DNA from: Fidelibacterota bacterium
GTDB taxonomy: Bacteria; Fidelibacterota; UBA2242
DNA: 64,000 nucleotides
Reading direction: 5' to 3'
NCBI GenBank assembly: GCA_049975265.1
Contig: JBNGDF010000003.1
Span: 1-64,000, forward strand
A program made the translations under genes and the position numbers. Below are positions 20,638-24,917 of this stretch, in pieces (position 1 is the first letter of the stretch; each line of letters starts with the position of its first letter). The notes below the pieces were generated by a model, which had not been told where the DNA came from, ran no database searches, and saw nothing but the letters and a program-made list of their open reading frames with translations.

Positions 20638-21471
20638 TTACAACTGCCGTAAAATCGTGATGGGGTCGGGGTATTTTTCCGATACTTCTTTCAGATAATC
20701 GCCGATGCGGTTCACATTATCGACGTCGATTTTGCGGGCTAAATTTTTCAATCCGCCCTGGGAATACCGGGAAAACAGGAACATGTATTTTGTGGCTGCG
20801 ATGAAGTAGGCTTTTTCGACAATATTCCAGATGATTGACGCTTCTACTGAGCCGACCAGGAGAAATGAATAGAGTGCATTCTGATGATCGCCGGCATATA
20901 ATTGACCGGCGCCGGGGATAATGTTTGACATCAGTGACGCCAGCCATCTTGATTTCTGAGGTATGTTTTCGGCATGTTCAATATCCGTTATCAGGTCATC
21001 AACATTGGTAAATTTGACCGTCTGCAACCGCTCAATTCCACTTTCCCAGTCTGCCTGGTAGATATAGCTCCAGGCGCTGATATAGTTGATCTGGTCCTGC
21101 CGGCTGGAATCCACGTGTGTTGCCAGCATCCCAAGCACGCCGCGCATGGCGTTATAGTCGTAATGATCCCAGTGGATCAGCGCGAGCAGCTTCATGCATT
21201 TCCGGTCATAAGGAGATGTCTCCGCGTTGGTAACCGCATCAACCAGGGGTTCTTCGGCGAGTTGCTTCTGCCCGCCCCGATAACAGGCATCGGCGATTTT
21301 GTAGAGATATTGGTCTCTGTCCCCGCTCTGATCGAAAAAGAGGGCTCGTTTGTACTCTGTCACCGCTTCGAAATAGAGCTCTTTCTGCAGGTAATAATCA
21401 CCCATCTCTGCTGCAATTGCCGAAAGCGGAAACAGCAGAAAAACAAGGATTGTGGTTATTTTTTTAGCCAT
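20638..21471 (-). CDS. Exported TPR protein with C-terminal KSxxLAxxxSxxxPGxGQxY helical-hairpin module
   Basis: Signal peptide; Y.EAVTEYKR; QKSRWLASLMSNIIPGAGQLY. Confidence 0.75.
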   Translation of the reverse strand: MAKKITTILVFLLFPLSAIAAEMGDYYLQKELYFEAVTEYKRALFFDQSGDRDQYLYKIADACYRGGQKQLAEEPLVDAVTNAETSPYDRKCMKLLALIHWDHYDYNAMRGVLGMLATHVDSSRQDQINYISAWSYIYQADWESGIERLQTVKFTNVDDLITDIEHAENIPQKSRWLASLMSNIIPGAGQLYAGDHQNALYSFLLVGSVEASIIWNIVEKAYFIAATKYMFLFSRYSQGGLKNLARKIDVDNVNRIGDYLKEVSEKYPDPITILRQL

Positions 21472-22328
21472 GCTGTCCAGTATGGATTTTTTTCGATGGG
21501 ATTCAAATCCTCCAGCTGTTCGATCAATTTTTCGTACTGTGTGTGATTATACAGCTGTGTGCCGATGTAGCTGCCGTAAATTGTGCCGAGATAAAAAGAG
21601 AGGGTCATCCCGCTGCAGACGACCCCGGTGATCAGGAGGTCTGCTTTGAATGCCTGCCAGCTGACGATCCCGGCGAAACCGGTCATGCCGAATGCAAACA
21701 ACGCATCACCAGGTCGCTGGATATAAACCTTGCCCAGCCCCGGCACGATTGACGATAGAAATGACGCCAACAGCGGCGATTTCTGCTGCAGCTTTTGACG
21801 TCGTGCTTCGGTTTCAGTAATCAGTTGTCGCAGGGAGTCATCGCCGATACTCTGCAGAGTCGCAGACGGAAAGGCGCTGGAATCCTGGTGCAGATGAGCC
21901 AGATATTGGAAATAGTGCTCCGGATCGGTTCGGCTGCCGAACTGACGGATCGCTGCCCAGTTTTCCAGTTTGTACTGGTTATAGAGATAGGCAAGCCGGG
22001 CGCTGCTGATTAACTCCGACCCTGGAAGATTCGTGATTTTCAGAAATGCCTGAGAAGCGTAATCGTAGCGTTCCCGGAGTTGATGACACAACCCGATTTT
22101 GAAAAGAATGGTATCGTTCCCGGTTCCGGTTAAAAACAGATAGCGTTCATATTCAATCGCGGCGCGCAGATAGTCTTCGGTAGCGAACAGGTGATTGGCG
22201 AAACTCAGGATTTTCGCCGAGTCAGTCGAAATATCGGCTGCCTGAAGATTGATTACCGCTGAAAGGATCGTCAATACGATCAGAATTTTACTATTTCGGT
22301 ATAAGGTCGTAACGTTCCACGGGGTCAC
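21456..22328 (-). CDS. Exported TPR protein with C-terminal KSPxLAxxLSxxxPGxG module (paralogue of 20638..21471)
   Basis: Likely GTG start at 22328 overlapping the yidD-like 3' end, then a signal peptide; DY.RAAIEYER; QKSPLLASFLSSIVPGLGKVY. Confidence 0.72.
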   Translation of the reverse strand: MTPWNVTTLYRNSKILIVLTILSAVINLQAADISTDSAKILSFANHLFATEDYLRAAIEYERYLFLTGTGNDTILFKIGLCHQLRERYDYASQAFLKITNLPGSELISSARLAYLYNQYKLENWAAIRQFGSRTDPEHYFQYLAHLHQDSSAFPSATLQSIGDDSLRQLITETEARRQKLQQKSPLLASFLSSIVPGLGKVYIQRPGDALFAFGMTGFAGIVSWQAFKADLLITGVVCSGMTLSFYLGTIYGSYIGTQLYNHTQYEKLIEQLEDLNPIEKNPYWTAWLKK

Positions 22329-22695
22329 TGAATTTTTCTCCGTCGAATTTGTAGTAGTTATGGGCAAAAGGATTGCAGCGCAGCAGCCGGTCGCCAGCCA
22401 GCAGGATGCCTTTGACCGGACCGAATCTTTCGATGGCGCCGAATGCAAAGCGGGAGCAGGAGGGATGAAAAACACAGGAGGGCAGGTCCTGGCTGGAGAT
22501 GCTTTTTTGGTAGATGCGAATCCAGACCAGTGCAGCGGATTGGAACAAATCCGGCACCTGTTCCGGCACTTCCGGATGCCAGACCTGTTCGATGGGTTTT
22601 TCCCAATAGTCGGTCCATTGGGACTGCTCCTGGGCACCTGCCGTAACAATGCCGCAGATTAACAATAAATAAAGCTGGAATCGGACTATCTGCAT
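22291..22695 (-). CDS. yidD: YidD-like (membrane protein insertion efficiency factor / 'haemolytic' domain) protein with signal peptide
   Basis: IRIYQKSIS....SCVFHPSCSRF...AI..FG..KG......RLLRCNP; N-terminal MQIVRFQLYLLLICGIVTAGA-Q. Confidence 0.82.
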   Translation of the reverse strand: MQIVRFQLYLLLICGIVTAGAQEQSQWTDYWEKPIEQVWHPEVPEQVPDLFQSAALVWIRIYQKSISSQDLPSCVFHPSCSRFAFGAIERFGPVKGILLAGDRLLRCNPFAHNYYKFDGEKFSDPVERYDLIPK

Positions 22696-22701
22696 AGTGT
22701 T

Positions 22702-22743
22702 AAAATAAAACCGGAATCGAATGAAAGTCAATCGATTCCGGTT
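22702..22743 (-). terminator. Rho-independent terminator/stem-loop between the small secreted gene and the yidD-like gene
   Basis: Perfect 12-bp stem AACCGGAATCGA (22709-22720) / TCGATTCCGGTT (22732-22743); the minus strand continues into a T-rich tract. Confidence 0.8.
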
Positions 22744-22764
22744 AATAGAATACGGAAGTCCAAA

Positions 22765-23235
22765 TTATTTTCTGAGTCCTTCCTTGACCTCAATGTCCGT
22801 CATGGTCTTGCCCTGATAGGCTTCCAGCGGAATGGTAATTGCCGGATAGATACCGACGCAAGGTATCAGACGTAACCACTCTTTTGTCCGGATTTTGCGG
22901 GTATCCAGCTCATTTCCGATTCTGGGACCCAGACAGAAACTGGCGGCAAAGCCCTCAAATCCGTTCGGTACATAACCCATGTCGTAAGCCATGTAACCCC
23001 GGCAGCCGAGTGATACCAGAGAACCAACAATCGGAACGACATTACCAAGATATCCGCCAATGACTCCGATCCACTCGCTTTTCTGAATCTCTTTGCCTTC
23101 ATTCATTTCCAAACCGACACGCGGACCAACCAGACAGCTGGCCAAGCACGGAAGAACGCCCCCCTCTTCGGCGTGCAAGCCCGTTCCCGCAAACAGCATA
23201 ATGACTGCTAAAACACTGATTACGATTTTCTTCAT
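22765..23235 (-). CDS. Hypothetical secreted protein made of a two-repeat Cys/Gly 'GPRxGxE' domain
   Basis: Signal peptide MKKIVISVLAVIMLFAGTGLHA; GAGGGAG SD; paralogous to the C-half of 23934..24917. Confidence 0.85.
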   Translation of the reverse strand: MKKIVISVLAVIMLFAGTGLHAEEGGVLPCLASCLVGPRVGLEMNEGKEIQKSEWIGVIGGYLGNVVPIVGSLVSLGCRGYMAYDMGYVPNGFEGFAASFCLGPRIGNELDTRKIRTKEWLRLIPCVGIYPAITIPLEAYQGKTMTDIEVKEGLRK

Positions 23236-23302
23236 TTGATCTCCCTCTTGATTTTGGATTAATATTGAGATTTATTTTTAAAAAACCAAATCATTTTTTT
23301 GG

Positions 23303-23923
23303 TCAACCCGATTTCGCAGAATTTTGTAGCTTGGTGCGGATTCCGACATTCACAAACAGCAGCACCGGATAGGCAGGAACCAGATTGAAGACCATCTGTT
23401 TCCGGTCTGTCAGCTGAACCGCCAGCTCGACTTCGCTATAGGGACCAATAAAACCTTCAATGGTGCCCCAATCTTTAAAAAGCCGGGTTTTGATGCCCGG
23501 AGGACCGTATCTGGACCAGCTGCGCCGGATATCCAAACCGGCTCCGAAACCAAACCCGGCGGACAGTCTACGATATTGAAAAACCGGCTGTTTGAATATC
23601 GTGGTCGCCAAATAAGTTGCCGGCTGAATCGCACAATCGATGTAAATAGCCTGCACGGTCCGCCAGTAGAGTTCACGGTTGTTCAGCGGTTTATCAAAAG
23701 CGGCGAGAATTCCCGGATTGAAGAGGTTTTGGGCATTTCGGTCGAATTTCAGCGGAAAGTAGTCTGCATTATAGGATACATCGATGAGATGATGAGTCAG
23801 ACCCAACAGGCGGAATGAGAGATGAGGACCGGGAAAGGCTGGGGTTTCAGAAAGGACCCTTCCGGAGAAAAGCAGTATTCCTGCAGACAGAAAAAGAATA
23901 TTCTTTACCAATCGGGAGCCCAT
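23303..23923 (-). CDS. Hypothetical exported protein, possibly a small outer-membrane beta-barrel
   Basis: Signal-like N-terminus; alternating beta-strand patterns; C-terminal FVNVGIRTKL. Confidence 0.6.
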   Translation of the reverse strand: MGSRLVKNILFLSAGILLFSGRVLSETPAFPGPHLSFRLLGLTHHLIDVSYNADYFPLKFDRNAQNLFNPGILAAFDKPLNNRELYWRTVQAIYIDCAIQPATYLATTIFKQPVFQYRRLSAGFGFGAGLDIRRSWSRYGPPGIKTRLFKDWGTIEGFIGPYSEVELAVQLTDRKQMVFNLVPAYPVLLFVNVGIRTKLQNSAKSG

Positions 23924-23933
23924 TCAACAGATA

Positions 23934-24917
23934 TCACTTGCGTAAACCTTCGGAAATTTCAATTTCGGTCATGGTTTTACCGTGGTAGGCTTCCAGAGGA
24001 ATGCTGATCAGCGGATAGATGTTTACGCAGGGGATCAGCAGCAGCCACTCCTTGTTGCGGATTTTCCGGTAATGCAGCTCGTTTCCCACCCGCGGACCGA
24101 TACAGAATGCCGCCAGCGCGCCTTCCAATCCATTATGTTTTCCGCCCATTTCATACGCCATATAGGCACGGTTGCCCGTATAAATCACGTTTCCAATCGG
24201 TGTCAGGATGCCGGTGGCAGATCCCGATATGATGGAACCACCGAGGGCGATCCATTCACTGAGGTGTATTTCCTCAATGCCTTCATTCATCTCCAATCCT
24301 ACCCGCGGACCCAGCAGGCAGCTGGCTAGCGCCGGTCCAAAGCCACCCGGTTCACGGTAACTGTGTACCGCTGTTGCCGATGTATCCCGAAGGTTGTCCG
24401 TTGTATCGCTGGTGTGAACCGGTCCGATCGTAGCCGGTGCAGGTGCTGTAATGGGGGCGATCAGACGCTCTGCCACCGCCTCGACGCCGGTCGACAAGAG
24501 TGATACAATATCACCCACGTGCCGGTAAATGAACATGCGGGCGAGCTGGTTTTTTTCAACATCGACCATCCGCACAGTGACCGAGTAGCTGTCATCAATT
24601 TTTGTAAGAACGCCTCCGACAGCCAACCGGCTGCCGCTGAGCCGACCAACCTCAGTCAGACAGGGAATCGCTGAACAACTGTCCAACGTATATCCCGCCT
24701 TTTCCAATTCTTCCTGAACATCGGAAACGGCAAGAAGACTGTAGCGGCTGCTCTGGAAAATTTCGGCTTGTAGATGTTCCGTAAAGACGCGGGATTCTTC
24801 CGTCGGTATTCCACGGGCTTCAAAATTTAAAATGACGAGTGTCGGTGATTGTCCGGCGATGTACCTGCTCAGCAGAAATGAAATAATGAATATACTAATA
24901 AATCTTCGTCTGTGCAT
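23934..24917 (-). CDS. Exported protein: CsgG/HfaB/TolB-N-like domain + Thr/Ala linker + 'GPRxGxE' repeat domain
   Basis: LVILNFEARG...L..E......Y.L, C....C..EVG...G....V.G.L.KI...Y.V.VRMVDVE; C-half aligns with 22765..23235. Confidence 0.8.
   Translation of the reverse strand: MHRRRFISIFIISFLLSRYIAGQSPTLVILNFEARGIPTEESRVFTEHLQAEIFQSSRYSLLAVSDVQEELEKAGYTLDSCSAIPCLTEVGRLSGSRLAVGGVLTKIDDSYSVTVRMVDVEKNQLARMFIYRHVGDIVSLLSTGVEAVAERLIAPITAPAPATIGPVHTSDTTDNLRDTSATAVHSYREPGGFGPALASCLLGPRVGLEMNEGIEEIHLSEWIALGGSIISGSATGILTPIGNVIYTGNRAYMAYEMGGKHNGLEGALAAFCIGPRVGNELHYRKIRNKEWLLLIPCVNIYPLISIPLEAYHGKTMTEIEISEGLRK

Follow-up and report, generated by a model that had tools for sequence, protein, structure and literature searches.

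YidD is a small partner of a membrane protein and has been reported to assist YidC in Escherichia coli (PMC3573977, PMC8082313). DUF5683 (PF18935), TM2 (PF05154) and DUF6677 are domains with no described function. Other described systems that resemble the one studied here are Lol, the helical protein P13 of Borrelia (PF05628), which is exported, and CsgG/HfaB (PF03783). We analysed 64,000 nucleotides of a Fidelibacterota bacterium (assembly GCA_049975265.1, contig JBNGDF010000003.1, positions 1 to 64,000; the window) and found on the minus strand, at 20638-24917, six adjacent open reading frames, A to F, where an earlier reading made without database searches (the sequence-only reading) had placed an envelope cluster. 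The cluster is layered and is not the single six-part machine proposed in that reading. Its core consists of D, E and F, a YidD paralogue and two tetratricopeptide repeat (TPR) proteins; to this are added a partner gene from a family that we name GPRVG after its motif and, as accessories, a CsgG-like fusion and a beta-barrel. We tentatively propose, at somewhat below even confidence, that D-E-F may be a periplasmic assembly module that places weakly hydrophobic helical proteins in the outer membrane, with the GPRVG protein as a client. The six genes are:

A, 24917-23934, minus strand: 327 residues; signal-like leader, CsgG/DUF2380-like alpha/beta domain (about 23-155), Pro/Ala/Thr linker and two-unit GPRVG domain (about 190-327); accessory.
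B, 23923-23303, minus strand: 206 residues; predicted small outer-membrane beta-barrel; accessory, with a narrow distribution.
C, 23235-22765, minus strand: 156 residues; signal-like leader and two GPRVG repeat units, Cys/Gly-rich, predicted all-helical, weakly hydrophobic; likely a client or a subunit.
D, 22695-22291, minus strand: 134 residues; YidD paralogue with a signal-like leader; core.
E, 22328-21456, minus strand: 290 residues; GTG as the probable start, signal-like leader, TPR region and DUF5683/TM2-like three-helix domain; core.
F, 21471-20638, minus strand: 277 residues; paralogue of E, with TPR and a DUF5683-like domain; core in most loci.

D belongs to the YidD family (PF01809, E 1e-19, 70.5 bits against a cut-off of 27; TIGR00278, 63 against a cut-off of 40). 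In the alignment it retains the C-x5-C...RC of YidD and gains a D-R before the last Cys; among the paralogues the first two Cys are invariant (28 of 28 aligned) and the third is present in at least 90%. Two canonical features are missing from D, since it lies outside rnpA-yidD-yidC and carries a hydrophobic leader, both as the sequence-only reading had noticed. The canonical rnpA-yidD-yidC, with a yidD of its own beside yidC, for which that reading had suggested looking, is found elsewhere in the same genome (G000:C1). D is thus a second copy, and it further differs from YidD/YidC in having a DUF5683-like partner in place of YidC and in being frequently fused. A second, shorter yidD is also present in all 10 of the distant genomes checked. 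The top 150 cluster representatives of the YidD profile search include 130 with an N-terminal extension, which is hydrophobic in 118, and 12 with a fusion to the hairpin domain described below. Because D-type genes exceed the ordinary YidD cut-off, current annotation hides them.

E and F are 25% identical, and F has a distinct R-Y-x-x-G helix. Both contain the motif KS..LAS..S.I.PG.G..Y, which the sequence-only reading had described as a terminal hairpin; the motif is present, but it lies about 100 residues before the C-terminal end, where it opens a three-helix domain. Homologous hairpin domains (n=34) matched DUF5683 in 25 cases at E<=1 (best 4.6e-6), DUF6677 in 8 and TM2 in 7, and the DUF5683 matches of the window proteins are all partial and below cut-off (F, 15.1 bits against 26.7). 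E and F share with these families the start motif KS..LA..LS..PG.G..Y and the helices that follow it, but here the same chain also carries TPR arms or YidD. The TPR match is weak in F itself and above cut-off in homologues (L073, L080, L085 and L087), homologues of E match TPR and YfiO models, and F is absent from loci with a single TPR gene. The membrane helices are marginal, with a median best 19-residue Kyte-Doolittle value of 1.3-1.6 against 1.7-2.5 for the peaks of the genome's own YidC. YidD is fused to E in L083 and to both E and F in L075. The model of a natural YidD-hairpin fusion (pLDDT, the predicted local distance difference test, 94; pTM, the predicted template modelling score, 0.89) is consistent with a packed YidD-hairpin unit. 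We also saw a solitary third hairpin-domain TPR protein, with no YidD, near a contig end (G000:C53:5019-5924, plus strand), and a DUF5683-like protein with a strand-like tail between a Peptidase_MA/PD40 protein and a YfiO (BamD-like) lipoprotein (L002:1972-6801, G000:C6).

A scan of GTDB detected 41 GPRVG loci, many of which are kin, in at least six phyla (Neomarinimicrobiota/Fidelibacterota, Latescibacterota, Fibrobacterota, Elusimicrobia, WOR-3 and Spirochaetia). In 34 of the 41, GPRVG has YidD and at least one TPR gene no more than 5 kb away. Four of the other seven stop at a contig edge (L061, L071, L077 and L084), with a YidD paralogue elsewhere in the assembly for L061, L077 and L084, and L090 is a weak 19-residue match, which leaves L063 and L088 as genuine exceptions. 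The linkage persists with reordering (L079 and L080) and with strand inversion (L084-L087, convergent in L085-L087). Among 61 relatives, C is present in 20, only within the order, and the gene order C-D-E-F is kept in nearly all of the 20 relative regions examined. The idea of an undescribed envelope module with a second YidD, which the sequence-only reading had staked on co-conservation of the genes, therefore survives. The single machine of six genes does not, with the CsgG-like domain in only 12 of the 41 GPRVG loci and the barrel in 9. No description of the module was found in a literature search whose scope left aside supplements and most subscription papers.

The YidD-hairpin core recurs in many double-membraned bacteria and reaches far beyond the GPRVG gene. 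In Spirochaetota, the phylum of L085, a hand count gave at least two YidD matches in 46 of 151 genomes. Among the best 25 loci of this phylum YidD is long in 21, a TPR-hairpin gene follows in 19 of these, and GPRVG is present in one, the seed locus. In the phylum of the window, 115 of 199 genomes match the YidD profile at E<=1e-19, some canonical copies counted in. Loci picked there for long frames were leader-YidD-hairpin fusions in 18 and D-E-F in 2 of the 20 viewed with flanks, and fusions in a further 40 of 40. The D-E-F and the fused forms coexist in one genome (G381, the same as G243; C37 and C4), which also encodes a third, shorter YidD. Both this wider spread and the LolA-like member found in other phyla had been missed in the sequence-only reading.

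On sequence grounds, GPRVG is a new, previously unnamed family for which no fold match was found. C and the C-terminal half of A are 59% identical. An alignment of the family's units shows a repeat of about 65 residues that reads GG..P.LASCC.GPRVG.EMNEG.KIR..EW, followed by a proline-kinked hydrophobic stretch and AY.GKTM.EI. There are two units per chain or, in L087, two single-unit genes. Within the lengths searched, homologues numbered 97 with a single query and 144 with a profile. No Pfam family was found for the 62 members scanned, which gave scattered weak matches with at most three members per family. The AlphaFold model of C is helical (pLDDT 88, pTM 0.74). At E<=0.001 Foldseek found nothing for C (best in VIA Z 3.4, root-mean-square deviation 3.1, 56 aligned), and nothing was found for the YidD-hairpin fusion (best Z 5.8, deviation 4.5, 85 aligned, YqeY); these blank searches do not establish new folds. 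Searches of PDB sequences with four profiles gave no match below E 0.15. In GPRVG, charged motifs are strongly conserved (GPRVGLEMNEG and GKTM), and of 62 sequences 87% and 85% have Cys at matching positions in the two units, none of these Cys being invariant. The sequence-only reading had heard in the GPRVG motif an echo of the TPR hairpin; profile comparison shows no detectable resemblance between the two (hhalign probability 0.2% and 0.1%), and we reject the idea.

Other loci carry additional genes beside the module. We detected a LolA-like gene in 11 of the 41 GPRVG loci, none of them in this order; 5 of the 11 served to build the profile, and Pfam LolA/LolA_like matches were also obtained. 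The profile built here also found a LolA-like neighbour in 3 of the 25 Spirochaetota loci. In L107 (1504-2607) an apparent fusion of a LolA-like part, judged by eye and with no Pfam match, to YidD precedes two TPR genes. The resemblance to Lol has limits: no LolA-like gene adjoins the module in the window, no LolB or LolCDE was seen in the loci read, and in C the A-x-A-type site is followed by EEGG and the first Cys stands at position 30, so that the predicted mature protein does not begin with the Cys of a lipoprotein.

In five loci the upstream slot is filled by a second small helical family, unrelated to GPRVG and with no Pfam match, whose members share the motif W..AG.GC...P...G.S.EY...Y (L047:8446-8817, L082:4160-4876, L091:1-666, L133:6524-6913 and L044:233-967). 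In L082 and L091 it is fused to a CsgG-like domain. This suggests that the small helical passengers are interchangeable and the machinery constant. A further soluble TPR protein recurs in L086 (6749-7426), L087 (3850-4419), L092 (2647-3252) and L080 (3713-4996), where it is fused to a LolA-like domain. Exported proteins with repeated FDP(L/V)TG motifs adjoin the fused YidD in L044, L045 and L046.

Constant machinery, interchangeable small helical partners, a neighbour with a carrier fold and marginal hydrophobicity together fit best with a module for delivery to, and settling in, the outer membrane. In such a scheme Sec would export all the parts, and the YidD paralogue and the two TPR proteins would form a membrane-anchored periplasmic complex in which the YidD domain may dock on the three-helix domain of E. 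The TPR arms would capture the client, which the LolA-like protein, where present, could ferry. Helical clients such as the GPRVG protein would then reach and settle in the outer membrane independently of the beta-barrel assembly machinery (BAM), and in A the GPRVG domain may serve as an anchor that displays the CsgG-like domain.

Several observations weigh against this proposal. The three LolA-like genes of the genome lie in ABC or RND-type clusters, so that no cognate carrier is evident. The YidD paralogue is immediately preceded by secF in 3 of the 25 Spirochaetota loci (L095, L096 and L114), an arrangement suggestive of the inner membrane. L063 has no YidD between C and E, with no YidD match in that 77%-complete genome, and L088 is a solitary GPRVG unit. 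No GPRVG, TPR or LolA-like match was found near 23 lone-fusion loci of the window's own phylum, the commonest form there, with a LolA profile that is insensitive and missed L047. The link to P13 is weak as well. The G-x-G-x-x-x-x-G motif of P13 aligns with the hairpin domain and Atlas gives 0.81 for C, but PF05628 matches none of the six genes, and hhalign with a two-sequence profile gave 4% for the hairpin (score 18.6 against a shuffled maximum of 16.9) and 0.3% for GPRVG, below shuffled.

The accessory protein A matches DUF3280 (E 0.007) and has no CsgG match itself; its homologue in L066 matches CsgG (PF03783) at positions 7-99 of 210 (E 2e-9), and the homologues overall cover 7-101. A thus shares the N-terminal alpha/beta domain of CsgG/HfaB, but only the first half of the profile is matched, no curli genes are present and GPRVG follows instead, so the CsgG-type pore considered by the sequence-only reading finds no backing here. 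A paralogue of this domain elsewhere in the genome occurs in one protein with PEGA and an OMP beta-barrel (L003:1971-3464, G000:C23); since the CsgG-like domain precedes the barrel, the barrel has the position that GPRVG has in A. The Atlas model of B (pTM 0.75) resembles unnamed barrel clusters (features 0.97, TM 0.78) and OMP_b-brl (TM 0.59-0.65). B has 11 homologues, and its H45, D96, C97 and R133 are invariant and spaced roughly like the His/Asp/Ser/Arg catalytic residues of PagP; this is weak evidence. Comparison with E. coli PagP gave a 25-column local match (probability 8%, score 25 against a shuffled maximum of 19), and global alignment failed.

We consider it unlikely that GPRVG is a permanent subunit, with C, D, E and F making up one membrane complex that takes a lipid or hydrophobic molecule from the LolA-like carrier, or a helical channel. 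One-to-one gene pairing and the conserved charged motifs of GPRVG would suit such a complex, and so would the LolA-like neighbour in 11 of 41 loci, as LolA-fold proteins often carry lipids. Yet most core loci lack GPRVG (it is present in only one of the 21 long-YidD Spirochaetota loci), and elsewhere it is replaced by an unrelated family, duplicated or fused to passengers. The linkage argues in turn against the other extreme, an independent YidD-TPR module with which GPRVG, the CsgG-like fusion and the barrel would share no more than position and regulation. The core is indeed widespread without any of the three, and L088 has GPRVG alone; all the same, we find this highly improbable, because in at least six phyla the association is kept even where the genes are reordered or their strand is inverted.

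A placement of the module in the inner membrane, where it would fold or release exported proteins on the periplasmic side of SecDF/YidC, seems to us quite unlikely. It is common for helices that follow a cleaved leader to be arrested in the inner membrane, secF is the immediate neighbour in the three loci named above, and in the genome of L082 the module lies about 6 kb from the canonical yidD. These points are countered by the marginal hydrophobicity of the helices, by the LolA-like and barrel neighbours, and by one DUF5683 protein that a table of Porphyromonas gingivalis outer-membrane vesicles lists with the location 'unknown' (PMC13744359). Even less probable in our judgement is a role of the YidD paralogue as a thiol catalyst, for disulfide or acyl transfer, on the Cys-rich GPRVG helices, possibly with B as a PagP-like acyl donor. 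The conserved Cys of the paralogue and of GPRVG and the invariant residues of B, with its local PagP match, would be explained, but canonical YidD has the same Cys, none of those in GPRVG is invariant, B is rare and its global alignment to PagP failed.

The local arrangement of the genes agrees with the sequence-only reading, which had described six minus-strand genes with signal-like N-termini, the last three overlapping. Gaps of 10, 67 and 69 nucleotides separate A from B, B from C and C from D, and the overlaps are 38 nucleotides between D and E and 16 between E and F. E has no ATG; its best start is the GTG at 22328, inside D, with GGAG 9 nucleotides upstream, and close relatives have GTG or TTG at the equivalent place. 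All six proteins start with a hydrophobic segment, whose 19-residue Kyte-Doolittle peaks of 1.4-2.2 are weak in A and B, and their export is predicted from hydropathy and conservation. Promoter and terminator scans were both near chance (11 against 6.6±2.5, and 8 against 4.9±2.3) and left one unverified candidate at 25073-25045. The first 4000 positions of the window have a GC content of 0.36-0.40, against about 0.48 in the rest.

Little is understood of the route by which helical proteins reach the outer membrane of bacteria, and the mechanism of YidD is scarcely described, though the protein is nearly universal. A second YidD that is predicted to be exported and is firmly tied to one membrane domain offers a testable handle on both questions. 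For structure determination and assays, the 185-residue natural fusion, which has a confident model, is a minimal construct. In a broader and more doubtful version of our proposal, diderms outside the Proteobacteria would widely possess a BAM-independent pathway dedicated to alpha-helical proteins of the outer membrane. In it, small helical clients would be ferried by the LolA-like carrier to a complex in the outer membrane, made up of exported YidD and two TPR-DUF5683 proteins. GPRVG would be a new family of clients and would also anchor surface or periplasmic domains through its helices, a task that beta-barrels perform elsewhere.

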